DNA of 64,000 nucleotides from an uncultured Leptolinea sp. (GCA_964476915.1 CAYZCO010000001.1:4253-68252); one strand, 5' to 3'; positions 23,773 through 36,226 are shown, counted from the stretch's first letter. Made by a program: numbers and translations. Notes: generated by a model from the sequence alone, not told the origin.

Positions 23773-24093
23773 TTGGGGCGTGTGTATTGCGAGATAATAT
23801 CACAAACAAAAAAGGTTGTCAATCAGCAGAATCTGGATTATTTGGACAAGCATTCTAAACTTATTGCGGGAGAAGTGAAATACAATCTTGATCTTGGAAG
23901 GAAAAAATAGTGGCATCGATGATGCTCTGTATCTATCAGGAAAGTTGATATGAGTGTCAGAGTTTTATCAGCGATTATCCAACTTCCTGATTGAATTCTG
24001 ACCCTGCGTTTGATATAGTTACGGTCGAATTAGGCAGCACATGCAGCACGCCCTGTCTTTTTGCAGGCGGTCTTTGAAAGAAAGGAAACAAAC

Positions 24094-24455
24094 ATGACGG
24101 AAACGGTCCTGGTGGCATATGCCAACCGCTATGGTTCCACCCTCGAGGTAGCAGAGAAAGTCGGGGAGGTCCTACATGACAGCGGGCTGAAGGTTGAAGT
24201 GCGCCCGGCACGGAACGTGAGCTCGCTTGAGCCGTACCGGGCTGTGGTGCTGGGGGCTCCGGTCTTCATCGGTAGCCTGCAAAAGAATATCAAGCGCTTC
24301 CTTTCGAAGCACCAAAAACCCTGGAGGGCATGCCGGTTGCTTTCTTTGCGCTTGGATCCCTCGATGCAACGGCTGAGATGGCGGGGGCGGAGGCCGTGAT
24401 TTATTTACTCAATTATGCTTTTGCAGGTTTTGCAGTAGGAATCCTATCAAACTGA
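24094..24455 (+). pseudogene. Flavodoxin-like gene, frameshifted and 3'-truncated at the island junction
   Basis: Frame 1 (MTETVLVAYANRYGSTLEVAEKVGEVL...) is a good flavodoxin-like N-terminus but decays into Arg-rich junk after KHQK (24316-24399). The shifted frame from the A5 run at 24314-24318 reads KTLEGMPVAFFALGSLDATAEMAGAEAVIYLLNYAFAGFAVGILSN* (credible protein sequence). Its last ~20 codons lie in AT-rich island DNA and the protein is about 30-40 aa shorter than typical flavodoxin-like domains. Confidence 0.5.
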
Positions 24456-24460
24456 GAGTA

Positions 24461-24784
24461 TCAACTGTAATTTCTATTTCTAAACATAGGTTTATCAATT
24501 CCCCTTTTTAATGCAGCCTTTGCTTTTTTGGGTTCTCTAATTATCCAGTCCATAGTTAAAAGAGCTGCAATAGGATCCATACCGTACTCATCAATAAGCT
24601 GCTTTACATGAACATCTTCAAAAGTGATATCTGGTAACGCTGAAACTTCTAAGAAACGAAAAAAAGCATCTTGAATTTCATGTTTTGCACAATGGATTTT
24701 ATCAGCAATAAGCTTGGCATCTTCCCTAGAATATTGGAATTTAGTTGCAAGAACTGTGATTATTTCTTCATTTTCCATTATCAA
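24461..24784 (-). CDS. Hypothetical 107-aa protein, last gene of the island, translationally coupled (ATGA overlap) to the HExxH protein gene
   Basis: MIMENEEIITVLATKFQYSREDAKLIADKIHCAKHEIQDAFFRFLEVSALPDITFEDVHVKQLIDEYGMD... Helical, no recognisable motif. 4-nt start/stop overlap with the upstream gene. Confidence 0.4.
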   Translation of the reverse strand: MIMENEEIITVLATKFQYSREDAKLIADKIHCAKHEIQDAFFRFLEVSALPDITFEDVHVKQLIDEYGMDPIAALLTMDWIIREPKKAKAALKRGIDKPMFRNRNYS

Positions 24785-25371
24785 TTCTCCATGTCCCCGT
24801 ACAATCCAATTTGGATTGCATTCGCATAAGACCAGGCATCAGCTTCTACTGGTTGATTCAAATACATCTCTAAACCGTAAGTTTCTGCATTCTTGTAGTC
24901 TTGCATGTTATCTTTCCATTCCTGGACGATATTTTGGTCAGAAATTATCTCTGGACGCTCAATTGCATAATCTTGATATGCGTGTCGCCCCTCATGGACA
25001 ATAGTATCTACGTTCTCCATTACCGTTTGATCTCCCATGAGGTGATCGTAGTTAACTCGGATAGATTGTCCATTCCATCCGCCAAACACATTATCTTCCA
25101 TTGAGACAGCTTCAACGGGAACCGAAGGTCTACCTTGAATACTTGCCATATTATCTTCCACGTTTTGCAAAGCAGCTAGTCGTTCATTTGCATCCTGAAT
25201 AGTCTCCCAATGTTCCGGTTGAATTTCACTTATTTGTCGCAACGAATCTACTCCATCAGCAATCTGACCCCTAGTCTCTAAGGAATAGCTATCTGTTAGA
25301 TCAGTCATTTGCGGAATATCCGATGGAGTCTCTAAGTTTTCATTTGTGTCTAATGATGTGTTTGAGTCCAT
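24781..25371 (-). CDS. HExxH zincin-like putative metallopeptidase (196 aa)
   Basis: IVHEGRHAYQDY contains HExxH followed by xxQ; a downstream ...LEMYLNQPVEADAWSY could supply a third ligand (Glu). Acidic N-terminal half. Family assignment uncertain (minimal zincin / DUF4157-like). Confidence 0.45.
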   Translation of the reverse strand: MDSNTSLDTNENLETPSDIPQMTDLTDSYSLETRGQIADGVDSLRQISEIQPEHWETIQDANERLAALQNVEDNMASIQGRPSVPVEAVSMEDNVFGGWNGQSIRVNYDHLMGDQTVMENVDTIVHEGRHAYQDYAIERPEIISDQNIVQEWKDNMQDYKNAETYGLEMYLNQPVEADAWSYANAIQIGLYGDMEN

Positions 25372-25384
25372 GTTGGTTGATCAA

Positions 25385-25855
25385 TCAGCCTAATATTTCA
25401 GGATTTGAATTTTCTTCCGTTTCATTTTCGAGGTTATTATAAATTATCCGTTCTGGCGATTCGGGACCTGCTTCAACCAAAACTGCATTACCAAGTTCAG
25501 TTGTGGCATACCGTTCCGATTGTATTGGGGGGGGATTTGAAATAGTATCCGAATCAAGAGGTGATTGGATTAAAGTATCTGAAGGTTGATTTTGGGTAAT
25601 TGATTCTTCGGAATCTCTGGTTGGAGATCCTGGTGGAGGTTGTGTATCACTGCCTGTTTCGGTTGTAAGATTAGAATTCATTTCCATTTCTTCTATACGT
25701 GTGTTTAACCTACTTTCTTGAGCTGCCAATTCTTCGTCTGCACGTCTACCCGCTTCAATAATATCTGGAGATAAGAGGCTATTATCAATAGGTATTAGAC
25801 CTTCATCATTCAATTCACTTCTGTTGTCTACTGGATTGCTATCAATATCATCCAT
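25385..25855 (-). CDS. Acidic Ser/Thr/Pro/Glu/Asp-rich intrinsically disordered protein (156 aa); start abuts the ATPase stop
   Basis: MDDIDSNPVDNRSELNDEGLIPIDN...TGSDTQPPPGSPTRDSEESITQNQPSD... has no hydrophobic core. ATG at 25855 lies adjacent to the stop of the ATPase gene. Confidence 0.4.
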   Translation of the reverse strand: MDDIDSNPVDNRSELNDEGLIPIDNSLLSPDIIEAGRRADEELAAQESRLNTRIEEMEMNSNLTTETGSDTQPPPGSPTRDSEESITQNQPSDTLIQSPLDSDTISNPPPIQSERYATTELGNAVLVEAGPESPERIIYNNLENETEENSNPEILG

Positions 25856-28834
25856 TTATTCCTCCAAAAGTTTGCTCTTGCCATACAGTTCCACAAGTTT
25901 TCGTGCTCGTGATTTTAAAGCATTGTCATTTGACTCTATTGCTAATATTTTATTCATTTCATGTGCAATAAAACAATAAGCCCAACCGATAACATTCTCT
26001 GATGATAATAATTCCTTGTACCTATTTTGAATTAATACTAATACTTCTTTTAAGTGAATTAAAGCGTCTTCTTGATCAACAGAGTTAATTGCTGCTGATA
26101 CTTTTTCGGAGCATTGTTTATAGAATAATGGTTTTTGGAGTATTTGATTGGTGACTGGAACTTTATATTCGCACACATTTCTAGCCTTACACTTACAATA
26201 AATGCACGTTTGCATAGGAGAATACAACGCCCATTTCTCAATCGTCTGATTTGTGTTTGAGGAATCTTTCTTTTGATCTCTATCAATAAAATGTGACCAG
26301 CCTTCTGGTTCAGTAATGTATAAATTAAATTTATGATTCTGCCTTGTCATAAAATGGTTAATTGATATATCATTGGTTACTTGTGCTTTTTTCCTGTCAA
26401 AGGAAGCTTGATCTCCAAATTCAGGAACCTTTAAATGAACGGGTTGTCCAAAAATACTCCTGACAATTGCGAAACCTGGTTTCAAAGTTCGAGCATACTC
26501 TTTTTGGGTCCTATTTAGGTTCGTTATGGTCGAAAATAATTCAAAGCTTGGTGCATCTTCTATCCAGTGCATGATTTTAATAAATGTATTTCCTATAGCA
26601 CCTTTTACTAATATTGTCGGAATCTGTTCGGCTATAACTATTCCTTCTCCATACGCACGTACTTCTGCAAGCATATTGCCGAAGTCCTCGCCGGAACTAT
26701 GCCGAGAATTTCCTTGCATATTGGAGTTTGCGGGGCTTTCTGACATCAAACGATGCGCTTCTTCTATAACTGTAATATGAGGGCTATCTAATGGTCTTGG
26801 ATTAATCTCAACAGTCTCGGTGAAGCAAACTAAAAGGAAACCCATAATTAAAGCGATATCATCTGTCGAACCAATTCTGCCCAATTCCATAATTGTTGGA
26901 TGATCGAGAATTTTTTCAAAAGGCATAGATTTCCGCACATTTACTGTGTACCCGACATTTTCCAAAAGATCTCCAATTCGGATTACTGAGGCTTGTTTTA
27001 CATTATCCCGAACTTCTCCACTATAGTTCAACCGATTAGTAATCTCTTGGATCGCTTCATAAAATTCCGACATTATTGGATAATGATGGGCGTCACTTCC
27101 TCTATCAACAGCAACATTCCACCCGGCATCTCGATAAACTTTTCGTAATGCTTCTCGATAGATCATTGGCAGCGGATCTTGTAAGGAAAAAGCAGATTCG
27201 AAAATTCGCATTAATCGCGAAATGTGGGTTTTTATCAAAATACCATCAGGGACAGCAAAAGGGTTGAACCTGAAAGGAGAAGTAGATTCATCGCCAACTG
27301 TATAGATTAAAAGGTCCTCTTCTAAATCAATAAATCCTTTTAACTCTCTGTAATCTGGTTTGTCAACAGGATATAAAACCATAAATGGGATTTTGTGTTT
27401 TAGCCATAATTGTGAAAGTAAATGTTTTATTGTTGTGCTCTTACCAGAACCAGTCGAACCCGCTATTAAAGCATGACGTGTCAAGTCGCGTACTGGTATT
27501 GTGAATTCCCCATTGGTGGAGCTTCCTCGATGAAAAATCTGGCCAAGACTTATTTTCTTTTCTTTTTGTGCTTCTTTCGATATGACTAATCCATCATTGA
27601 AATTCACTTTTGCTTGTTCGCGTAGCTCTAACTCATCAATTGGGGATATGAAAGGTTCGTTCTTTACCAGGATGCCAGGTAAATATCCAGATTCAGGTGG
27701 AATTGGTAATCTGAACGCCCCATATGCCTCTTGTGCAGTTGCTAAGTATCGCAACCGGATTAAGGGATCGGAGGCAATAGTAAAACCCCAAAAATCATGT
27801 TCAAGAAATCGTATGTTATTTAATTCTGTTCGTAATTGTTGGTCATCAGCTGGTTGAGCAGATACCCATGAGGTTGGGTATTTGTTGGCTGCATTACCCA
27901 TCATTTCAGAACCAAGCGCTTCTACCAAACCGCGTGGACAATCTAATTCACCAACTATATGGACACGTACCATCAGTAATTGTTCACGCTCCACCATTAA
28001 ATTGTCATAAACGAAAACTCCTACCTGTGATCGTTTTCTAATGTATTCTTCTGTAACATCTTCATCTTCTGATGCAGTCTTCTTAAATTGACCGATCATA
28101 AAGCTAACATTGTAGATTTCCTGGTCAAACATTTTGGTGGGTTTGAGACTGATATCAACGAAGCATTTTTGTGGTTGCGCAGATAACACTGCGAAAAATC
28201 GGCTCATCGGATTGGAGTTTTGACTTGGTACAAAAGGATGAGCAATATAATCACCTTTTCTTTCAACTCTAGCAGTTGGTGCAGAGCTTCGAATTGGCAT
28301 ATCTTCGTATTTACGAATTTCTAACACGCTCTCCTTTGATAAATTGTTAAATGGAATTGGCTCATAATATTGCCAGAATTCACGTTCTTGATTAACTGAT
28401 TCCAATGGATAGCCGAAAGGTTCTTCTGTGGGAAAAATGCCAGAAAATTTTTCCCACAGAACCTCTGCAAATTGCTGTGCACTAATTGCATTTTTTGAAA
28501 ATGATTTTCCAAAGAATATGATCTCAACTAAATTTGGTTGGCCAGCGATAGGGTTTGGAGTAGAAATGAACCTGAGAGAAAAAGTTGAATGGTTCTCCCG
28601 AATTCGGGCAAGGTCGTAAATAAACCTGAACTGGCGTTGTTGAATTATTGAAATTCGGTTATTGCCTGGTCTTGTCAAATCATCTGAAATCATTGAGGGT
28701 AAAAATGGTACCCGTGCTGCCCATATTGCATGAACTCCTTCTACTGAACGAAAAGAGAGTCCAATTTGGTTATCAAAACTGAAGGCTTGATTTATTGAAG
28801 TCTTTTCAGATACGTATATATAGGGATAACTCAT
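25856..28834 (-). CDS. HerA/FtsK-superfamily (DUF87/VirB4-like) P-loop ATPase with ~440-aa uncharacterised N-terminal region and C-terminal Cys-rich segment (992 aa)
   Basis: Walker A LIAGSTGSGKST. Walker B HITVIEEAHRLM (hhhhEEAH, the DEAH-like variant typical of HerA/VirB4/TraC-type ATPases). C-terminal CIYCKCKARNVCEYK Cys cluster. N-terminal 440 aa has no recognisable motif. Confidence 0.7.
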   Translation of the reverse strand: MSYPYIYVSEKTSINQAFSFDNQIGLSFRSVEGVHAIWAARVPFLPSMISDDLTRPGNNRISIIQQRQFRFIYDLARIRENHSTFSLRFISTPNPIAGQPNLVEIIFFGKSFSKNAISAQQFAEVLWEKFSGIFPTEEPFGYPLESVNQEREFWQYYEPIPFNNLSKESVLEIRKYEDMPIRSSAPTARVERKGDYIAHPFVPSQNSNPMSRFFAVLSAQPQKCFVDISLKPTKMFDQEIYNVSFMIGQFKKTASEDEDVTEEYIRKRSQVGVFVYDNLMVEREQLLMVRVHIVGELDCPRGLVEALGSEMMGNAANKYPTSWVSAQPADDQQLRTELNNIRFLEHDFWGFTIASDPLIRLRYLATAQEAYGAFRLPIPPESGYLPGILVKNEPFISPIDELELREQAKVNFNDGLVISKEAQKEKKISLGQIFHRGSSTNGEFTIPVRDLTRHALIAGSTGSGKSTTIKHLLSQLWLKHKIPFMVLYPVDKPDYRELKGFIDLEEDLLIYTVGDESTSPFRFNPFAVPDGILIKTHISRLMRIFESAFSLQDPLPMIYREALRKVYRDAGWNVAVDRGSDAHHYPIMSEFYEAIQEITNRLNYSGEVRDNVKQASVIRIGDLLENVGYTVNVRKSMPFEKILDHPTIMELGRIGSTDDIALIMGFLLVCFTETVEINPRPLDSPHITVIEEAHRLMSESPANSNMQGNSRHSSGEDFGNMLAEVRAYGEGIVIAEQIPTILVKGAIGNTFIKIMHWIEDAPSFELFSTITNLNRTQKEYARTLKPGFAIVRSIFGQPVHLKVPEFGDQASFDRKKAQVTNDISINHFMTRQNHKFNLYITEPEGWSHFIDRDQKKDSSNTNQTIEKWALYSPMQTCIYCKCKARNVCEYKVPVTNQILQKPLFYKQCSEKVSAAINSVDQEDALIHLKEVLVLIQNRYKELLSSENVIGWAYCFIAHEMNKILAIESNDNALKSRARKLVELYGKSKLLEE

Positions 28835-28915
28835 TATCTGGCCTTCCTGTGTTTAATAACCAGCAATCATACACGATTACTGAATGAATCAAAAAGTAGA
28901 AAGTCTATATAAATT

Positions 28916-29878
28916 TTAATCACCCCAGGGTTGATTATAATCATCTTGTATCATAGAACTCTCATCACCATATTTTACATTTTGAATTCTACTAATTTCT
29001 TCCTTGGTTGATGCAATTTGGGGGATTAATTGACCATTTATGTACTCACTTACTGACTTTTTCCGATTGGATATCACTTTTATACTAGATAGTAACGAAA
29101 AAACACCAATTAATATAATCAATACAATAAAGAATGCAGCCCAGCTTTCAGTGGAAAAACCAACAATAGCTGATAACATTAAAGCCCCTATTCTAAACAA
29201 ACCACCTATGCAACTTGATCCAGCGGTTTTGTTTAATTCAGGGTGGGCACGAATAATGCTTGTGTAATCCGTTTGACCATCTTGAAGTTCTGTTTGCAAG
29301 GCCAGGAGTCTTTTTTGTTGATCAGTTAATAGTTCACTTTGAAGTTTCTTGAAATTATCTTCTTTATTTACGCCACAATTTGAGCAGAACTTGTTTGAAA
29401 ATTCGACAAGAGAATTACAATTAGGGCATTTGACCCCAATTCTTTTCCCGCATTTAGCGCAGAATTGTGTGCCAGTTGGATTTGCTTTCTTGCACTTTGG
29501 GTCCGTACAGATCCAGGCGTCCGTTCTTTCAACCTCTTTTTGTTCGGAAGCAGGAAAATGAATGTTACTAGGTCGGGGCGGTGCCATTACTCTATTAACA
29601 GGATTTTGCGCAATGAGAACATCAGGATCTGCAAGACCAGCCATGGTGCCTTGAGCTTGAGCAAGAAATCTATCATACTCATTCCGTTTTTCCGAATTCA
29701 TCAACGTATTTCGGATCTCTTCAAGTTGGTTTAAAGCCTGGTTTGCCTGAGACACAATATTTACATCGTGATGTGTAACTAATGACCGCCATTTTGCGTA
29801 TTGATCGTCTAGTCTTTCTTCAATCTCAGCACTACTTGCATTTGAAGCTAATTTAAGTAATTCATAATAATTAATCAT
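28916..29878 (-). CDS. J-like domain protein (HHD variant of HPD) with zinc ribbons and C-terminal TM anchor (320 aa)
   Basis: N-terminus INYYELLKLASNASSAEIEERLDDQYAKWRSLVTHHD...SEKRNEYDRFL aligns with the DnaJ J-domain (YYEILGV..A...EI..AY..LA.K.HPD...AYEVL.D..KR..YD). Followed by CTDPKCK...CAKCGKR...CPNCNS...CSNCG zinc ribbons and a hydrophobic C-terminal segment (IGALMLSAIVGF...FFIVLIILIGVFSLLS). Confidence 0.55.
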   Translation of the reverse strand: MINYYELLKLASNASSAEIEERLDDQYAKWRSLVTHHDVNIVSQANQALNQLEEIRNTLMNSEKRNEYDRFLAQAQGTMAGLADPDVLIAQNPVNRVMAPPRPSNIHFPASEQKEVERTDAWICTDPKCKKANPTGTQFCAKCGKRIGVKCPNCNSLVEFSNKFCSNCGVNKEDNFKKLQSELLTDQQKRLLALQTELQDGQTDYTSIIRAHPELNKTAGSSCIGGLFRIGALMLSAIVGFSTESWAAFFIVLIILIGVFSLLSSIKVISNRKKSVSEYINGQLIPQIASTKEEISRIQNVKYGDESSMIQDDYNQPWGD

Positions 29879-29907
29879 TATTCTCCTCGGTTTAATACTG
29901 TTTTGGT

Positions 29908-30726
29908 CTATTCATCGTTCTCTGGATACCTGGCAAACCATTGATTCTTCACTTTCCTTGCTTCTAACGAGTTGTTTCGGTTTAATGCGTCTTCATGCCA
30001 TCGTTTATAAATGTCCTCCTGCAATGATCTTGCCTTCATAATGTTGGAGCAATTAACAATCACTTCATCTAACAGGTTTATAGATTTCTTCCATGCCGAA
30101 ATGTAAGCATACCTTTCTGCTAAAAGATAGTTTGCATCACATTTGATGTTCTTACACTCAACATTGTGTTGATCTAACGAAAGGCAAATACTTGATTGTT
30201 CAAGTGCAATATCAAGTTGGTCATGCTCAAAGGCATCCTTAGCGTAAAGTATGCTCAATTTTAAGTTTACAGGATTCAAGGTATTCTTATTTACCATAAA
30301 ACGTTTGGCCATTTTTAAATTGCTTTTTGCGCAGGCATAATCACCAGATTGGATGCAATTCTGCGCTACGTGCAATGATTCAACACCTTTTGTTTGCATT
30401 TTCCTTATAAAAACACCAATGATCACTATTCCAATGATTAAAATTATGCCAATAATTATGCTTATAATGATTGTTTGGCGTAATCTTAAAATAAACCAAG
30501 GTTTATCTTCAAGTTTCGGGAACGTTGCTGTGTTATCAGTCAAATTTTCTTGAAAAGCGATAAAATCATCTCTTAGTTTTTCTTTTGTTTCGTTCAGAAA
30601 TTCATCGCTTTTTTTGTAAGCGCGCATGTTTATTCCACATCCAGAGCAGATTTCTATGCCGATTGAATTGAAAAATCCACAACTTGGACAACAAATATGC
30701 AGAGGAGATGGATTATTTACCTTCAT
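29908..30726 (-). CDS. Zinc-ribbon / single-pass membrane / Cys-containing helical-repeat (TPR-like) protein (272 aa)
   Basis: N-terminal CPSCG...CSGCG zinc ribbon; TM helix IIISIIIGIILIIGIVIIGVF; C-terminal helical domain with several Cys. Its start overlaps the stop of the upstream gene at 30726. Confidence 0.45.
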   Translation of the reverse strand: MKVNNPSPLHICCPSCGFFNSIGIEICSGCGINMRAYKKSDEFLNETKEKLRDDFIAFQENLTDNTATFPKLEDKPWFILRLRQTIIISIIIGIILIIGIVIIGVFIRKMQTKGVESLHVAQNCIQSGDYACAKSNLKMAKRFMVNKNTLNPVNLKLSILYAKDAFEHDQLDIALEQSSICLSLDQHNVECKNIKCDANYLLAERYAYISAWKKSINLLDEVIVNCSNIMKARSLQEDIYKRWHEDALNRNNSLEARKVKNQWFARYPENDE

Positions 30727-31382
30727 TACACTTGTGTGAGTTTATTGAATATTATGTATGCTGTTATTAAAAAAATGAAAATCAGCAAAATTACTACAGC
30801 CCACAACAATAACCCTCTTACAATAAATCTTTGATTTGCTGTTTCTACAATTTTTGCATTGCGTTGAATCTCGTCCCTTTCGAGATCCGTACGTTGTTCA
30901 GCTGCTATGGCAGTTATGTATCGATTATTGTCAAACTCACTAATTATCGTTTTACATCTTTCACATACCCTGGTATTCAAGTTAATTATGTGGCCACATG
31001 AAGGACAAGATCGAGATGTTTGTTTACCACAATGTTCACATACGAGTGCTTCAATTAGCTTTAAATTCCCGCAATTTGGGCATTGCGATAAAAGAGGTTC
31101 ACCTTGAATATCTTGATTCCATATCGCATCTCTATGTGAAATCATACTGTGTTTGAACTGTTTTTCAGCTACAAGCAGATCTTTGTTATTGGTCCGACTT
31201 TTGATGATATCTAATAAAAATCTAAACGCTTCCTCTAGCCTTTCTCCTTCAGCATGGGCATCTTTAGAAAAATCGTTATGAAGGATAAGCTCGGTTCTTT
31301 TGTTGTTAAATTGTTCAGCAAGAGAACTTTCGGAATAATTTCCTACAATACCAAGGATTTGTTTTGCTGAAACCTCGTCCAT
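30726..31382 (-). CDS. Second J-like domain protein (HND variant) with double zinc ribbon and C-terminal TM anchor (218 aa)
   Basis: AKQILGIVGNYSESSLAEQFNNKRTELILHNDFSKDAHAEGERLEEAFRFLLD resembles a J-domain (weaker than the 320-aa paralog). CPNCG...CEHCG...CPSCG...CERC zinc ribbons. C-terminal TM (LLLWAVVILLIFIFLITAYIIF). Confidence 0.45.
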   Translation of the reverse strand: MDEVSAKQILGIVGNYSESSLAEQFNNKRTELILHNDFSKDAHAEGERLEEAFRFLLDIIKSRTNNKDLLVAEKQFKHSMISHRDAIWNQDIQGEPLLSQCPNCGNLKLIEALVCEHCGKQTSRSCPSCGHIINLNTRVCERCKTIISEFDNNRYITAIAAEQRTDLERDEIQRNAKIVETANQRFIVRGLLLWAVVILLIFIFLITAYIIFNKLTQV

Positions 31383-31387
31383 AGTAA

Positions 31388-32614
31388 TTACCCGACACTT
31401 GCGATTACTTCTCTTACAACCTCAAATAAATATTGTTTACGCCATCCTCTTACATTTGAAGATTCAAATGGCGTATCTTCACCGTCGACCTCAACTGCAT
31501 ATCTTGGTGGGGTATCGGGGAAGTTTGGACCACAACTAAAAACACACATTATTGTTCCCCCAGAATTTTTTGGCATATCAACTCGAATTATATATGACCC
31601 ATTAAAAAGGCCATTTGCATCCGTGCCTGATTTCACTTCCACGTGTGCGCCAGGCAGGGTTTTTAATAGATTAATTTCTTCATTCATCCTTGTTTGGGTA
31701 TTTTGCCCCGGGTTATCTTGCGTTGAGAGGTTAGTGCTATTTTGAAAGCCATATGTGCTATCAAGTCTTGCTTGCTGAGTTGATGGATTATTACTACCCG
31801 CTAAAAGATTATTAAACAACTGCGAAGGGCTTGCAGTACCATTGGAAGATGGTTGTACTAAGAAGCCGCCGGCAGGATCCATATAGCCTTTATCTATCAG
31901 GTCGCGAATAATTTTGATTCGCTCATCTGGTGATGCTTGCATTAACATTGTCCTAATATCCATTTGCGAATTCTGCAATATTGCACTATCTAGCTGCCAA
32001 TTGCGAAATGTTTGAAATTCATCCATGGATTGTTGACTTAATGCATCTTCACCTGAGTCGAGTGCTTTCAAATTTGTAATTATTACATTTAATACTTCTA
32101 TCCCGATTGTTTTCTGTAATTGCATCCCCTTTAATCCCTGAAGAACTCTTGCAGCGAATTCTTCTCTTCTTAGGTTTACTTCATCATAAGTAGCCACGCT
32201 TACAATGGGATTAATAACCATATTGACTCGATCAAATAACGCGTGTAAGGGTTGATCAATTTCTAAAGCAACCATTCGTGCATCTCGAACTTTGTATTCA
32301 ACAACTAGATCAAGATCCAATTGAACAGGAACGGGAAACTTTATTTGATATTTTCTACTGGTTGTGATTGTTAATTGTTTTACGCGCATGTCAACAACGA
32401 CCGCACGTATGTTCCGAAACATTTTATACCTGTAAAGGTAATAGAATCCTGGAGCTAAGGTTTCTTTGTAAACCCCGCCCTCCGTTATTACTGCACAGAA
32501 TCCTTCTTTCACCTCATATTTTCCGCTAAGCAGGGGTAGTGGTATCCCCTGATCCAGTAATTGTTCTGGTCTTACAAGATCCAAATCATTTATAGAATAT
32601 CGATTATCCGTCAT
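31388..32614 (-). CDS. SPFH/band-7 (stomatin/HflK-like) domain protein with Ser/Thr/Asn/Gln-rich linker and unknown C-terminal domain (408 aa)
   Basis: EGFCAVITEGGVYKETLAPGFYYLYRYKMFRNIRAVVVDMRVKQL...LDLVVEYKVRDARMVA...IEVLNVIITNLKALD follows the SPFH core pattern (G.V...G.Y..T..PG..h.P.h..V..V..R.Q........T.D...V.V...V.YRV.D). No N-terminal TM helix. Confidence 0.5.
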   Translation of the reverse strand: MTDNRYSINDLDLVRPEQLLDQGIPLPLLSGKYEVKEGFCAVITEGGVYKETLAPGFYYLYRYKMFRNIRAVVVDMRVKQLTITTSRKYQIKFPVPVQLDLDLVVEYKVRDARMVALEIDQPLHALFDRVNMVINPIVSVATYDEVNLRREEFAARVLQGLKGMQLQKTIGIEVLNVIITNLKALDSGEDALSQQSMDEFQTFRNWQLDSAILQNSQMDIRTMLMQASPDERIKIIRDLIDKGYMDPAGGFLVQPSSNGTASPSQLFNNLLAGSNNPSTQQARLDSTYGFQNSTNLSTQDNPGQNTQTRMNEEINLLKTLPGAHVEVKSGTDANGLFNGSYIIRVDMPKNSGGTIMCVFSCGPNFPDTPPRYAVEVDGEDTPFESSNVRGWRKQYLFEVVREVIASVG

Positions 32615-32823
32615 GATTGTGATAACCTCTCATAAAAATGTATACACTTCAATAAACCCAACCTTGTGTAACCTTGATTGGGCTCTCTTTGAGGACCAAT
32701 GGTTGTGTAGATATTTGTAAGAATATTGTTTTTGAATTCATAGGAAGCGAAATTTTATTAGAAATAGCTTGGTAAAAGTATATATTACTTTTACTATTTG
32801 TGTTAAATGATCCCAATCTTCCG

Positions 32824-34374
32824 TTATTCGATTATTTGGGTTTGCATCCAGAGCTTCTTTGCAGATACTTGGTTGTCTGATTGCCCAATTGCATAATCCA
32901 CTTTCGTTTGGGTCTCTATACCGGTTTCGATATCACGAGCGGAAATCTCTACAACTCCATTGTTGGTACAAGAAATAGTTACTCGTACTTTCTTTCCTGG
33001 AGGTCTGTTTGGAGGTAGTCCATTCAAGAAAAAATCACCAATTGGGTTGCATAAAGCTGGATTTTGAAATTCCCCTTGAAAAACAGTAATTTTTATCCCA
33101 GTTTGGCCGTGAATTTGTGTAACAAATTCTTTTGAAGTATCGAATGGAATTGGACTGTTCTTCTTAATGATAATAGAATTAATTTTTTGATCAGAACCAG
33201 GTACTGTCGCTTCAATTCCTATTGAGTGGCTAAGTACATCTGTGATTTGAAGAGATCCAATTTTATCTACAACCATTGGTTCTAAATTTTCATCTTTTAA
33301 CTTTGATAATTCTAAAGCTGAAACAATTGCAGCCCCAAGGCTAACAGCCTCATCGGGATTGATTGAAATGTCTGGTTCTTTCATAAAAATGTTTTGTACT
33401 GCCTGTCTAACAGCAGGAATTCTGGTTGATCCCCCAGTCAATAACACTCTATCTACTTCTTCCGCTTGGACTTTTGCTGATTTGAGAAGATTTCGAATAA
33501 GGGCTCCAGTTGTATCAAGCTTTGGCTTAATCGCTTCTTCAAATTGTTCTCTTGTTATTGAAACTTGACTCCTATGCCCTTTTGCCCTGACGAGGATCAT
33601 ACATTTATTCCGAACACTTAATTCTTTTTTTGCCTTTTCTGCGTCCATCCGCAATTGCTGATTCTCAGAGGCATCTTCACTTGGATCAAAACCGTGCTCT
33701 TGGATGAATGTATTAACACATAATCGAATAATCGCATCGTCAAAATCCTTACCGCCTAGTTGGTGATCTCCCTCAGAAGCTATTATCCGGATATCCTGAC
33801 CACTGTTTTCCACCCTCATTAAGGTAACATCAAATGTGCCACCACCCAAATCATAAACTAGCACTGATTCGTTGTTTAACTGTTTTTGTGCACCAAAAGC
33901 TATAGCAGCTGCTGTTGGCTCATTTATCAGTTTTAGGATCTTAAATCCGGCCATTTCACCTGCAAGGATAGTTGCTCGACGTCTAACATCATCAAAATAT
34001 GCAGGAACAGTTATCACTGCATACGGCAGGCTATAAGATAAAAGATCCTCGGCGTCCTTTTTCAGTTTCTTTAAAACAAAGGATGAGACATCTGGTGGTG
34101 TCAATCGTTTATCTTTATACTTATAATACCAATTCGGATTCCCCATTTCCCTTTTTGAAAAAAGGACAACTTTATCCGGGTTAGCAATTGCACTTTCTTT
34201 TGCTATTGTTCCGACCACAACAACATTTTCATCAAAGAAAATTGCAGATGGGGTTAGACGGTCTCCTTCAGCATTAGCAATTATTTCGGGTTCTCCATGA
34301 TCATTAATAATTGCTAGTGAAGAATATGTTGTTCCAAGATCTATTCCTGCAGCGCAGATTTTTTTTGTTGGCAT
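32824..34374 (-). CDS. Hsp70 family ATPase, short form (about 517 aa)
   Basis: Start set at MPTKKICAAGIDLGTTYS (the listed ORF begins 15 codons upstream at a TTG). Hsp70 signatures IDLGTTYS, DLGGGTFDV, LLTGGSTRIPAV. Substrate-binding beta domain present; the usual about-100-aa C-terminal lid extension of DnaK is absent. Confidence 0.8.
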   Translation of the reverse strand: MPTKKICAAGIDLGTTYSSLAIINDHGEPEIIANAEGDRLTPSAIFFDENVVVVGTIAKESAIANPDKVVLFSKREMGNPNWYYKYKDKRLTPPDVSSFVLKKLKKDAEDLLSYSLPYAVITVPAYFDDVRRRATILAGEMAGFKILKLINEPTAAAIAFGAQKQLNNESVLVYDLGGGTFDVTLMRVENSGQDIRIIASEGDHQLGGKDFDDAIIRLCVNTFIQEHGFDPSEDASENQQLRMDAEKAKKELSVRNKCMILVRAKGHRSQVSITREQFEEAIKPKLDTTGALIRNLLKSAKVQAEEVDRVLLTGGSTRIPAVRQAVQNIFMKEPDISINPDEAVSLGAAIVSALELSKLKDENLEPMVVDKIGSLQITDVLSHSIGIEATVPGSDQKINSIIIKKNSPIPFDTSKEFVTQIHGQTGIKITVFQGEFQNPALCNPIGDFFLNGLPPNRPPGKKVRVTISCTNNGVVEISARDIETGIETQTKVDYAIGQSDNQVSAKKLWMQTQIIE

Positions 34375-34536
34375 AGTGAAACCCTTATAATTTTTGCATA
34401 TAGAATTATTAAGAATCAACGATTTTCTGAGAAATTTATCTCATGAAGATGGTCCTTTTAACAATCACTTGTTCTTTTTGAATTAGAGTATTATCCCTAA
34501 AAAGAGATACTGGAAATACCATACCTTAAGTATGGG

Positions 34537-35964
34537 TCATTGTACCAAGTTAATCAATGGATCATCTTTGGGAATTTTTTCGAAGTAGGTCGTAAAATAC
34601 TCTTTTAACGGTTTCCATTCAGATGATGACAATAAAGTTTTCGCGTTGTGATTGGCATGCACAAGACCCGCAAAAACTAAAGCAGGAATCAAACCTTCCG
34701 TTAAAGCCATTGGAAATAATTCTTCCGTTAGGGGTGTGAAATGATTATATAGAATTGAAGCGGAAATTGCTTCTCTAATTATCTGATTCTTATGACGCAT
34801 TAGGTTACGCAAAAAGTTAAGGTACTGACTGTTGGCCAAATTGCTCTTCCCTCGAAGCAATGAATCCATCAGAAAAATTAGTGACAATTGGATATTGTTT
34901 GCGTCTGGATTTTTCGACATAAGCGAATCTAAGATTGCGTTTGTTTTGGGATGTACTGCCCCCATAAACAAATAACAACCTGATAAAAACACATCTACGG
35001 AATTTAGCTTTCGAGCATCATCTTTACTCCACATGTTGTCCAGTTTTCTAACCCCGTATGGACCACACAACTTAAGCACAGCGCCCAATCTATACATTTC
35101 TGTATGATAAGTTTGTAACAAATTAGTTGAATCCTCAATTACGTTATTTATTGAAACATATGGAGTAGTAATCAATCCAGTTAGAGAATTCTTTTTACTT
35201 TTATTTTGGTAATAATTAGTAAAACCTGCTATCCCTGCTGAAATAAGAGAAGAAGTGGTACTTTTTAAAGACTGCTTTTTGCCAAATAGCCTCTCTGAAA
35301 TGAGATTCCTGCCGGTTCCACTCGATTCGGATTCATCCGACTCAATATATTGAAAACTGCTTTGATTTATCAGGATTGAGATAATTTCGGGCAAATTTAT
35401 TTGTTCCAAGTTTTTAATTGCGAGAATATCGAAAGGAAATTGAATAAAATTAGCATATTCTGACAACCAGGGTAATTTTGCATTTGATCGAATCTTGCTT
35501 AACGCAATTAATGAATACTCCATATCTTGGAATATGTTATTGTCAACAATCAAGTGGACAACTTTTTCACCCCCAATATCTCCCAGAAGGGAATATAGAT
35601 CCCCTTTTTTCTCTTCCGGAAACATAAACTTGTCTTTCATCTTCCAGAGGCTATCAATAGCTTCGACTGGTTTCACCTCAAAAAGCATTTCTTTTGCTCT
35701 CTCATATGTCTCTCCATTTCCTTTTTCAAAATCATTCAATAAGTTTTGGAGTATATTCGGGGCCAGATATTTGTTCTTGGAGCTTGCATTTGAAGGCCTG
35801 AAGAAAGAATTTAATTCATAAAATAGAGGTGGAATTATCATATCTGAAGATGTTGACTGATTTGCAGATTGCGGCTCAAATTTAACTTTAGTACCGCATT
35901 TACCACAAAACTTTACAGCAGGATTGAGCGCATTTCCGCAATTGAGACATACGTAGTTCTCCAT
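34537..35964 (-). CDS. N-terminal zinc-ribbon protein with large helical domain of unknown function (475 aa); first gene of the island
   Basis: Start at MENYVCLNCGNALNPAVKFCGKCG (AGGAGG RBS 5 nt upstream; the listed ORF extends 10 codons further). CxxC...CxxC zinc ribbon, then helical body, Ser-rich linker around residues 220-260. Confidence 0.5.
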   Translation of the reverse strand: MENYVCLNCGNALNPAVKFCGKCGTKVKFEPQSANQSTSSDMIIPPLFYELNSFFRPSNASSKNKYLAPNILQNLLNDFEKGNGETYERAKEMLFEVKPVEAIDSLWKMKDKFMFPEEKKGDLYSLLGDIGGEKVVHLIVDNNIFQDMEYSLIALSKIRSNAKLPWLSEYANFIQFPFDILAIKNLEQINLPEIISILINQSSFQYIESDESESSGTGRNLISERLFGKKQSLKSTTSSLISAGIAGFTNYYQNKSKKNSLTGLITTPYVSINNVIEDSTNLLQTYHTEMYRLGAVLKLCGPYGVRKLDNMWSKDDARKLNSVDVFLSGCYLFMGAVHPKTNAILDSLMSKNPDANNIQLSLIFLMDSLLRGKSNLANSQYLNFLRNLMRHKNQIIREAISASILYNHFTPLTEELFPMALTEGLIPALVFAGLVHANHNAKTLLSSSEWKPLKEYFTTYFEKIPKDDPLINLVQ

Positions 35965-36226
35965 GATACCTCCTGTTTGGTTGTGAACTATCACTAAAGA
36001 TCTCTTTCAAAAAAATGTATTTACTTAAGAATTCATAAAATCGTTCTAAATAGGAAAATATTATCTAATAAATTTTAACCTAATTTATTCTTTAAGGAAA
36101 ATTAAAGTCCTGGCTCACGATTAAATAGATTATCCAACTTCGGAGTTTATAAGCGTGTCTTGCTAACTGCCCATTAAGAGACTATAATCAGCTTCTGCAG
36201 TAATTGGAAAGAAGGAAAGCAGTACT

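Follow-up and report, generated by a model that had tools for sequence, protein, structure and literature searches.

A lid-less Hsp70 and J-type partners without the HPD motif in a mobile operon of Anaerolineae

Introduction

A 2026 review asks whether deviations from the His-Pro-Asp (HPD) motif of J-domains, other than HPE, are accidents or have been selected for (PMC13254874), and the locus described here raises that question in the form of a J-type protein which carries HHD at the place of HPD and is encoded in the neighbourhood of an atypical Hsp70. The locus lies in a stretch of 64,000 nucleotides from an uncultured Leptolinea sp. (GCA_964476915.1, CAYZCO010000001.1:4253-68252), referred to below as the window, and encodes the Hsp70 as well as two J-type proteins, labelled J2 (320 amino acids, aa) and J1 (218 aa). 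A preliminary description had presented this set as a dedicated Hsp70 with two membrane-anchored J-like co-chaperones, carrying HHD and HND in place of HPD. On the evidence presented below, the island that holds these genes is predicted to encode a self-contained, membrane-tethered Hsp70 machine within a conserved operon of approximately ten genes. Loci retrieved for comparison are denoted by L-numbers, L005 being that of the metagenome-assembled genome (MAG) of Leptolinea sp. UBA4782; they comprise the neighbourhoods of divergent Hsp70 relatives, genome loci and 33 metagenome loci fetched with the ATPase of the operon.

The J-domain of J2

J2 (28916..29878, minus strand) is composed of an N-terminal J-domain (residues 1-80), a linker, a double zinc ribbon (121-170), a coiled coil, a transmembrane hairpin (223-266) and a C-terminal helix, as assigned from PF00226 and DZR matches, an AlphaFold2 (AF2) model and Foldseek. 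The island protein aligns to the entire PF00226 profile (1-63/63) with 26.7 bits, slightly below the gathering score of 27.8; J2 paralogs from other loci score 28.0-37.9 bits, and most J2 homologs have a precomputed match to this family. The AF2 model, which is based on a 31-sequence alignment, has a mean predicted local distance difference test (pLDDT) score of 85.7, exceeding 90 over residues 1-70, and exhibits helices at residues 4-7, 16-34, 39-59 and 62-80, followed by a disordered linker (81-120), the zinc-ribbon region, the coiled coil and two hydrophobic helices. When the model was compared with the PDB by Foldseek, 26 of the 27 best matches were J-domain structures, the best being 5nro_B, the DnaJ J-domain of the DnaK complex (TM-score 0.85, root-mean-square deviation 1.9 A over 66 columns). 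The J-like domain attributed to this protein in the preliminary description is thus confirmed, the predicted model having the four-helix J fold.

The loop between helices II and III (i.e., between 16-34 and 39-59) is formed in the model by T35-H36-H37-D38 (29765..29776, minus strand, with the HHD codons at 29765-29773), so that HHD indeed stands in place of HPD, as had been proposed from the translation. Among 78 distinct J2-type J-domains, collected from the loci and from database matches, the triad is HHD in 63, NHD in six, NFD and HHN in two each, and HYD, HND, HHK, HHQ and SKN in one each, while HPD occurs in none; the loop consensus reads LVTHHDP. In the J2 alignment H37 is invariant, and E18, E20, D24, D25, K29, W30 and R31 are nearly so. 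Because of this predominance of HHD, and because the ratio of nonsynonymous to synonymous substitution rates (dN/dS) of the J-domain is 0.23 relative to its Leptolinea ortholog, THHD(P) is under purifying selection, and the HHD of J2 is a clearly selected, family-wide alternative and not a lesion.

These data bear directly on the proposition that the J-like domains are decaying, with HHD and HND as lesions that destroy function while the acquired cassette degenerates. HPD substitutions normally abolish function (PMC8215388, PMC13254874), and J2 remains under the Pfam cut-off while J1 yields no score, yet the conservation of the triad and of H37 already contradicts such decay, as do the dN/dS values of the complete genes (0.19 for J2, 0.25 for J1 and 0.09 for the Hsp70), reading frames that are intact throughout the operon, and an operon that has been kept down to approximately 55% identity; decay is consequently most improbable.

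Beyond the J-domain, the zinc ribbon of J2 matches PF12773 DZR (E 1e-9), and hydropathy places the transmembrane hairpin at residues 223-241 and 248-266, followed by ~55 further residues; since the two helices form a hairpin, both ends of the protein would be cytoplasmic. At the start of the otherwise disordered linker, immediately next to the J-domain (window 29590-29640, residues ~80-96), the sequence GLADPD is nearly invariant (G81, L82, D84, P85), and might act as a short linear motif for interaction, e.g., with the substrate-binding domain (SBD) of Hsp70.

The Hsp70 and its relatives

The Hsp70 (32824..34374, minus strand) is 516 aa in length, the 517 aa reported earlier having included the stop codon, and consists of a nucleotide-binding domain (NBD), an LQITD linker and an SBD-beta. 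It matches PF00012 with an E-value of 1.3e-125, the profile being aligned only to position 508/599, and all three PROSITE Hsp70 signatures ascribed to it are present. The chain ends ~14 residues past SBD-beta, and the whole alpha-helical lid (SBD-alpha) is therefore absent; the preliminary description was right in stating that the C-terminal lid extension is lacking, although what is missing is the entire SBD-alpha and not merely an extension. When 119 family members were aligned with DnaK, HscA and HscC of E. coli (DnaK numbering is used throughout), no variation was seen within the family at D8, K70, E171, D194, T199 and D201 or at the relay residue P143, and 110 of the 119 members have D at position 148; the catalytic residues are thus intact, and the Hsp70 is predicted to be ATPase-competent. 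Both the DnaK 76-101 segment and the DnaK 290-295 loop, the latter termed the GrpE signature motif (PMC8215388), are deleted in this family, and an insertion of ~15 residues precedes the family-specific linker, which reads LQITD where DnaK has VLLLD.

The island Hsp70 exhibits 34% identity to DnaK, 34% to HscA and 36% to HscC, the last value applying only to the NBD and the first part of SBD-beta, as the BLAST alignment to HscC ends at HscC residue 413. In a neighbour-joining (NJ) tree, the only tree method applied and one with limited sampling, the protein and ~120 close relatives constitute their own clade apart from DnaK, HscA and HscC, with Verrucomicrobial (520-525 aa) and Firmicute (~705 aa) atypical Hsp70s as loose neighbours; accordingly, the phylogeny that the preliminary description had called for does not cluster this protein with ordinary DnaK. 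The protein database contains more than 120 clusters (90% identity) of relatives of 511-524 aa at >=51% identity, and nearly all of the named relatives derive from Anaerolineae/Chloroflexota MAGs. No dnaK, dnaJ or second Hsp70 gene was found elsewhere in the window, and the notion of a dedicated Hsp70 with its own membrane-anchored J-type partners is upheld. Of the loosely related loci, neither of which gave a PADLOC match, a Verrucomicrobial one (L009:9173-13281) encodes a lid-less 520-aa Hsp70 and, after it, a protein of 570 aa whose J-like N-terminus is without HPD, and one from Alkalihalobacterium (L010:8277-18886) encodes tandem Hsp70 paralogs of 565 and 702 aa followed by a 995-aa protein whose J-like N-terminus contains NHPG.

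The preliminary description had further held that the locus mirrors the HscC-DjlB/DjlC arrangement (Kluck et al. 2002, reviewed in PMC8215388). As far as architecture is concerned the parallel stands: a GrpE-independent-looking Hsp70 paralog lies beside its own class-C J proteins in both cases, DjlB and DjlC likewise combine an N-terminal J-domain bearing a variant triad (HPE, residues 31-33) with a C-terminal transmembrane segment, and HscC has in common with the island Hsp70 that residues 76-101 are deleted, that the GrpE loop is missing and that loop L1,2 of SBD-beta contains an insertion, the first of these being also common in non-proteobacterial DnaKs (PMC8215388). Homology, in contrast, is not indicated. 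HscC is 550-580 aa in length and has a shortened lid (PMC8215388), whereas the island family (511-524 aa) has none; R167 and Q378, conserved in HscC, are lost in the island Hsp70; DjlB and DjlC, of about 480 aa, carry HPE and no zinc ribbons, whereas the island J proteins exhibit HHD or no triad at all and double zinc ribbons; and HscC loci are devoid of SPFH and HerA-like genes, whereas the operon, found in Anaerolineae, encodes an SPFH protein, a HerA-like ATPase and a putative metallopeptidase. That the locus represents a further HscC-DjlB/DjlC family member, i.e., a truncated Hsp70 with membrane-tethered J proteins and the same stress function, would account for the common architecture, the non-HPD triad, the membrane anchor and the shared indels, but its claim of homology is already contradicted by the separate clade, the early end of the BLAST match and the other differences listed, and it is very unlikely.

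The Hsp70-J2 contact surface

In the complex of DnaK with DnaJ (5NRO), H33 of DnaJ contacts the backbone of linker residue L391 and P34 contacts P419; D35 is hydrogen-bonded to R167 and Q378; and R22, K26, R27, K48 and K51 dock on E206, D211, E217 and D477 of DnaK (PMC8215388). The two residues that read D35, R and Q in DnaK, HscA and HscC alike, are lost in the family of 119 members, position 167 being D in 53, G in 24, K in 14 and E in nine, with R not belonging to the most frequent residues there, and position 378 being M in 58, V in 33, I in 12 and L in eight. The acidic docking positions have changed as well: E206 is R in 81 and K in 13 members, E217 is R in 56 and K in 32, D211 is deleted in 95, and D477 is S in 66 and A in 29. 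P419 is invariant, and the position of L391 is occupied by I or V. On the side of the J protein, helix II of J2 has a net charge of -2 in 24 of 31 sequences, as compared to +3 in DnaJ, and lysines equivalent to DnaJ K48 and K51 are lacking.

Both sides of the canonical interface, in its electrostatic as well as its HPD-reading part, have thus been altered, judging by the alignments, in complementary directions. We infer that J2 would dock on its own Hsp70 via a co-evolved, charge-reversed interface, which would insulate the mobile module from DnaK and DnaJ of the host. As THHD(P) has been kept while the contact residues of the Hsp70 have changed, the data suggest that the interaction is specific and rewired, and not a canonical one that has been weakened. 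Stimulation of Hsp70 ATP hydrolysis by J2 is putative only, the canonical D35 readers R167 and Q378 being absent. The J-domain proteins (JDPs) with a corrupted HPD that are known as ‘type IV’ (PMC13254874), exemplified by DNAJB13 (PMC10410713), similarly retain the J fold with HPD replaced, and may have a regulatory part towards Hsp70; J2 differs from these in that its replacement, THHDP, is conserved family-wide and linked to a private Hsp70 with changed contacts.

J1, a J-like domain without a motif

J1 (30726..31382, minus strand) is composed of a J-like domain (residues ~1-66), a double zinc ribbon, a coiled coil and a C-terminal transmembrane anchor, as delimited by the ortholog profile and a DZR match. 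The island protein on its own does not match PF00226, whereas a profile of 18 positional orthologs matches J-domains of the PDB over the whole domain (E 3e-12). Ten of these 18 orthologs match PF00226 individually, and some resemble textbook J-domains save for the loop, e.g., ‘...YELLNLPSTATVDEILAAYTRERARCIADGGDD...LDEAYAILSDPGQRVAYDRSL’. The J-like domain proposed for J1 is therefore supported by homology through its orthologs, although not by a Pfam match of the island member itself. A model from two sequences was of low confidence (pLDDT 53.8) and indicates only a compatible helix pattern.

The HND tripeptide of J1 (31272..31280, minus strand, located by translation and ortholog alignment) occupies the expected loop position, but the triad is not conserved, being HND in the window, RND in the 72%-identical Leptolinea ortholog and SKE, SID, ADG etc. 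elsewhere. Since no triad is conserved among the orthologs, the likeness of HND to HPD is ascribed to chance, and the reading of HND as a motif that replaces HPD is not sustained; J1 has a genuine J-like domain, whose family has lost the motif altogether. The gene is single-copy and is always situated directly after the SPFH gene. Its zinc ribbon matches PF12773 DZR (E 1e-7), and hydropathy indicates a tail anchor with one transmembrane helix at residues 193-211, so that the Cys4 zinc ribbons and the C-terminal transmembrane helices previously noted for the two J proteins are present in both. The suggestion that these proteins serve in tethering or regulation rather than as classical co-chaperones fits J1, whereas the data for J2 instead suggest the specific rewired interaction outlined above.

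A membrane-anchored J protein paired with an HPD-less J-like protein is also encountered in the mitochondrial import motor, i.e., the Pam18/Tim14-Pam16/Tim16-mtHsp70 system, where the two jointly place an Hsp70 at a membrane complex and regulate it (PMC13254874). The homology between the two systems is limited to the J fold, J2 as the ‘active’ partner in the island is also HPD-less, and no recognisable translocon component is encoded in the island.

The island and its operon

The genes described above are located in a low-GC island (24389..36015), which comprises the whole operon on the minus strand and was delimited by its GC contrast and by its homology borders relative to L005. Its GC content is 0.36-0.38 as against ~0.53 in the flanks. 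L005 exhibits 87.8% DNA identity to the island across 11.6 kb, with sharp borders at 24389 and 36015 beyond which its flanks are unrelated, and there, too, the block has a GC content of 0.37 within a genome of 0.55-0.6. On account of the foreign GC content and the different flanks around the same block, the 11.6-kb operon is a horizontally acquired, mobile island of an Anaerolineae bacterium, which agrees with the acquisition already proposed in the preliminary description. Integration linked to a tRNA gene was considered and is unlikely, the only tRNAs lying 16 kb away. A flavodoxin-like open reading frame (window 24046-24399), whose 3' end is apparently frame-shifted or truncated, abuts the island border; in L005 a homologous flavodoxin-like piece (76% identity) is found at the other end of the island, 2 kb away, which suggests an insertion near the same gene in another arrangement.

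All ten genes of the island are encoded on the minus strand, in the 5' to 3' order Zn-ribbon protein, Hsp70, SPFH, J1, Zn-ribbon/TM (transmembrane) protein, J2, ATPase, acidic protein, HExxH protein and small protein. Most intergenic gaps amount to 0-81 nt or are overlaps, and larger gaps of 162 and 209 nt are found on either side of the Hsp70 gene. Relative to the Leptolinea ortholog, dN/dS is 0.08-0.43 in all ten genes, indicative of purifying selection, with values of 0.08 for the SPFH gene, 0.09 for the ATPase gene and 0.25 for the 5' Zn-ribbon gene in addition to those given above. Whereas Hsp70, J1 and J2 had been noticed as neighbours, the SPFH protein, the Zn-ribbon/TM protein, the HerA-like ATPase and the putative metallopeptidase of the same conserved operon had been overlooked.

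Distribution and related loci

The same gene order is found in at least 30 loci, mostly of Anaerolineae, and may be summarized as [Zn-ribbon]-Hsp70-(J2)0-2-SPFH-J1-Zn-ribbon/TM-(J2)0-5-ATPase-[acidic]-HExxH-small protein. The number of J2 copies per locus varies from one to eight, and long J2 paralogs possess extra C-terminal domains, for example a PD40 propeller with six blades (E 1e-62) or one that is BACON-like. The paralogs are strikingly expanded in L105 (1-9829), where a series of eight consecutive J2-type genes precedes the ATPase gene, one of them with the PD40 six-blade propeller and one BACON-like. In L001 (14294-18131), an insertion sequence with an rve integrase interrupts the operon; three J2 genes, arranged in tandem and identical in their N-terminal sequences, come next, indicating a recent duplication. 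In L002 the operon adjoins a BsoBI restriction-modification system, a resolvase and transposases.

The ATPase belongs to a large superfamily (2120 clusters at 50% identity with E<=1e-30), and about 40 of the 150 best-scoring clusters extend over its N-terminal domain. Distant ATPase relatives in the loci compared (39-46% identity) keep an adjacent SPFH gene, and Prok-JAB and ThiF/E1 replace the Hsp70/J genes. In L113 (3052-12886) and L116 (3092-9695), with ATPases of 41-46% identity, Prok-JAB, ThiF/E1 and an E2-looking protein of ~155 aa are encoded ahead of the SPFH-ATPase pair, together with a CHAT protein in L113, and what is predicted to be a ubiquitin-like conjugation module takes the place of the Hsp70/J module. 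An Hsp70 is retained in the L114 variant, together with a J protein of 1002 aa in which the loop is likewise HPD-less.

A search of the ten island proteins against PADLOC v2 returned no system-level match, the only matches being weak partial ones to HerA and mad8 and one to PDC-M61B, and NCBIfam and PHROGs scans of the same proteins were also without a system-level match. Viral contigs scanned with the ATPase alignment yielded nothing, and a phage collection contained only generic DnaK-level similarity (35-37%). From plasmid records the system is absent, and these hold only ATPase-domain relatives in uncharacterised cassettes of two to three genes; examples on Priestia and Streptomyces plasmids (L124:6352-13277 and L125:6543-11924) consist of a ~130-140-aa protein, a ~1000-aa ATPase and one further protein, annotated as hypotheticals.

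The other proteins of the operon

The SPFH/Band-7 protein (31388..32614, minus strand; 408 aa) matches PF01145 with 39.4 bits relative to a cut-off of 23.6 (E 8e-10), and its profile matches HflK (E 5e-4) as the best hit in the PDB. Its SPFH domain is followed by a linker rich in Q, N and S, and the C-terminus forms a conserved alpha/beta domain with a YPxxPP motif, for which only an insignificant E2/UEV match (E 0.9) was obtained in the PDB. The C-terminal ~100 aa (window 31388-31700), with their invariant YPxxPP-type motif, read like a UBC/RWD (E2-like) fold, the E 0.9 match being the sole support, and may link this domain to the E1/JAB variants. According to hydropathy, the SPFH protein is soluble and devoid of transmembrane helices, as are the Hsp70, the ATPase and the last three proteins of the operon.

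The HExxH protein (24781..25371, minus strand; 196 aa) combines an acidic N-terminus with a putative zincin metallopeptidase domain (HEGRH...E); PF20573 (DUF6782) is matched by ten of 14 orthologs (best E 2.3e-8), in which the H, E and H of HExxH and a downstream E are invariant, and the protein is regarded as a putative metallopeptidase of the DUF6782 family. Its acidic N-terminus is expanded at some loci to give proteins of 516-775 aa; in L109 (11850-14177; 775 aa) and L094 (8299-9849; 516 aa) it is long, Pro/Glu-rich, repetitive and of low complexity.

An SPFH protein encoded together with a zinc metallopeptidase, and with HflK as its best structural match, is reminiscent of HflK/C-FtsH and other SPFH-protease assemblies, which differ from the island in that both the SPFH protein and the peptidase of the latter are without transmembrane segments, the peptidase being a small DUF6782 domain and no AAA+ protease being encoded. 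From this likeness one might read the operon as a module for membrane-protein quality control or envelope stress, in which the Hsp70 and the ATPase would extract damaged proteins from an SPFH-organised membrane patch or pass these to the metallopeptidase. The HflK match, the zincin-type peptidase and J proteins that would anchor the Hsp70 at the membrane are in keeping with this, an SBD without a lid could accept bulky or membrane-proximal clients, and HscC of E. coli has been tied to Cd2+ and UV stress (PMC8215388). The patchy, island-borne occurrence with foreign GC content, the variable J2 copy number, the receptor-like C-terminal domains, relatives that carry E1, JAB and CHAT, and the lack of membrane segments that sets the SPFH protein and the peptidase apart from HflK/C and FtsH all argue against it, and make quality control a rather unlikely purpose of the operon.

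The HerA/FtsK-superfamily P-loop ATPase (25856..28834, minus strand; 992 aa) matches PF01935 (DUF87; 31.9 bits with a cut-off of 23.2) and PF01580 (FtsK), and its Walker A motif GSTGSGKST and its EEAHRL motif are invariant among orthologs. It is the best-conserved gene product of the operon, with 53-58% identity where the Hsp70 exhibits 54-56%. Its N-terminal domain of 420 aa is unique and highly conserved, without a relative in a profile search of the PDB, and its C-terminal region contains Cys residues. Although HerA-based defence systems (PADLOC HerA, mad8) also possess a HerA/FtsK-superfamily P-loop domain, the similarity of the ATPase to these models reaches E 2e-11 at best and only in the P-loop region, no SIR2, DUF4297 or nuclease partner is present, and the N-terminal domain is unique.

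The ATPase gene is directly followed by those for the acidic, probably disordered protein (25385..25855, minus strand; 156 aa; delimited by alignment), which occurs in a subset of loci and for which Pfam, NCBIfam and PHROGs scans found no family, for the HExxH protein, and for a small conserved helical protein (24461..24778, minus strand; 105 aa), which in the alignment of loci is always encoded 3' of the metallopeptidase gene and for which profile searches found neither a family nor a PDB relative. In L115, a locus without an Hsp70, J or SPFH match, the HExxH and small genes adjoin a distant ATPase relative. The host lineage is generally regarded as monoderm. The latter three observations, as well as the part played by FtsK-like ATPases in ESX/type VII export (PMC1779556), would be compatible with an apparatus for export or toxin delivery, the ATPase pumping the acidic proteins and the metallopeptidase as a toxin, the small protein acting as immunity factor or chaperone, and the Hsp70 and J proteins keeping substrates unfolded. 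The ATPase, however, has neither a transmembrane segment nor an FHA domain, no WXG/LXG-type substrates, signal peptides or polytopic channel were found, and the three transmembrane proteins have just one or two helices each, so that such an apparatus is distinctly unlikely.

Two further proteins contain zinc ribbons. The Zn-ribbon/coiled-coil/single-TM protein (29908..30726, minus strand; 272 aa) directly follows J1 in all complete loci and, by hydropathy, has a transmembrane helix at residues 86-104 with a domain of ~165 aa beyond it; no Pfam family was found for it. The Zn-ribbon protein at the 5' end (34537..35964, minus strand; ~475 aa from the ATG common to the orthologs), recognized by N-terminal Zn_Ribbon_1/DZR matches, is a variable member, with orthologs on the 5' or the 3' side of the operon in L005, L006, L093, L094 and L112.

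Possible function of the system

The reading preferred here, to which we assign a probability of roughly 0.5, is that of a membrane-tethered, non-canonical Hsp70 machine in which J2 would dock on its own Hsp70, the whole constituting a membrane-associated conflict system. Beyond the charge-reversed docking and the insulation from host chaperones, J1 would act as a non-stimulating tether or regulator, similar to Pam16. More speculatively, the J2 paralogs, some of which are receptor-like, would serve as membrane sensors or adaptors that recruit the Hsp70. The recruited Hsp70 may then remodel a complex of the SPFH scaffold and the HerA/FtsK-type ATPase, and this remodelling may in turn regulate an effector or substrate, either the DUF6782 metallopeptidase or the acidic proteins. 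Equally speculatively, the whole would be a membrane-associated biological-conflict system directed against phages or competitors. Conflict is favoured over housekeeping quality control because the Hsp70/J module is exchanged for E1, JAB and CHAT in relatives, the island is mobile, the J2 paralogs are expanded and the named sources are mostly Anaerolineae/Chloroflexota; a membrane-associated defence function is thus inferred as the most likely one.

Divergent Hsp70 paralogs in mobile, NTPase-centred multi-gene systems have precedents in the GAP1-N2 GTPase systems with HSP70/GrpE/DnaJ-fused proteins, which occur preponderantly in multicellular prokaryotes (PMC7159879), and in CnuD of the CoCoNuT systems (PMC11090510). 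Unlike these, the island operon does not comprise a GTPase, McrBC, tubulin, a HEPN partner or GrpE, and the ATPase motifs of its Hsp70 are intact where those of CnuD are degenerate.

A number of points weigh against the conflict reading and the docking that it implies. The island is situated among ordinary genes in the window, not in a defence island; no PADLOC defence model was convincingly reached by any component; no nuclease, pore-former or other classic effector was found in the operon; and the assignment of the metallopeptidase depends on a DUF family. As for J2, HMMER sets the HHDP of the J2 profile opposite the DKNP of DNAJB8 and not opposite HPD, and the register of HHD against HPD carries an uncertainty of one to two residues, even though the position in the loop is clear. 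Across 20 loci no covariation was observed between the residue at position 167 of the Hsp70 and the J2 triad, position 167 being simply unconstrained, and the charge-reversal argument depends on the alignment to DnaK and on secondary-structure positions. Furthermore, HPE seems to be the sole tolerated replacement of HPD (PMC13254874), a rule that ATPase stimulation by HHD would contradict.

Meaning of the finding

There are precedents for dedicated pairs of an Hsp70 and a JDP, for J-like or ‘type IV’ proteins devoid of HPD and for conflict systems that contain Hsp70 paralogs (PMC8215388, PMC13254874, PMC7159879, PMC11090510). The literature covered contains no description of the operon, no family-wide HHD triad tied to an Hsp70 without R167 and Q378, and no fully lid-less bacterial Hsp70 clade; the census of bacterial JDPs and Hsp70s by Barriot et al. 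2020 lies outside that scope, and a prior mention there is possible. It is conceivable, if tentative, that an orthogonal Hsp70-JDP pair, with an HHD(P) loop and a rewired lid-less Hsp70, is the engine of an undescribed conflict machine in filamentous Anaerolineae. From the comparison of gene neighbourhoods, a conserved SPFH and HerA-like ATPase core, to which either Hsp70/J or E1/JAB/CHAT modules may be joined, would seem to constitute a type of system not yet characterised. Its members stem mostly from metagenome-assembled Anaerolineae/Chloroflexota, of which few organisms have been cultured or studied.

The HPD motif is regarded as a near-inviolable mark of functional J-domains, from which the J2 family is a clearly selected deviation, one that is shared family-wide, goes together genetically with a private Hsp70 and is matched by changes at the contact residues defined by the DnaK-DnaJ crystal structure. 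Owing to these three properties, the question of whether deviations from HPD are accidents or selected for becomes directly testable with few proteins, and the J2-Hsp70 pair, if functional, would be a ready-made orthogonal chaperone pair.

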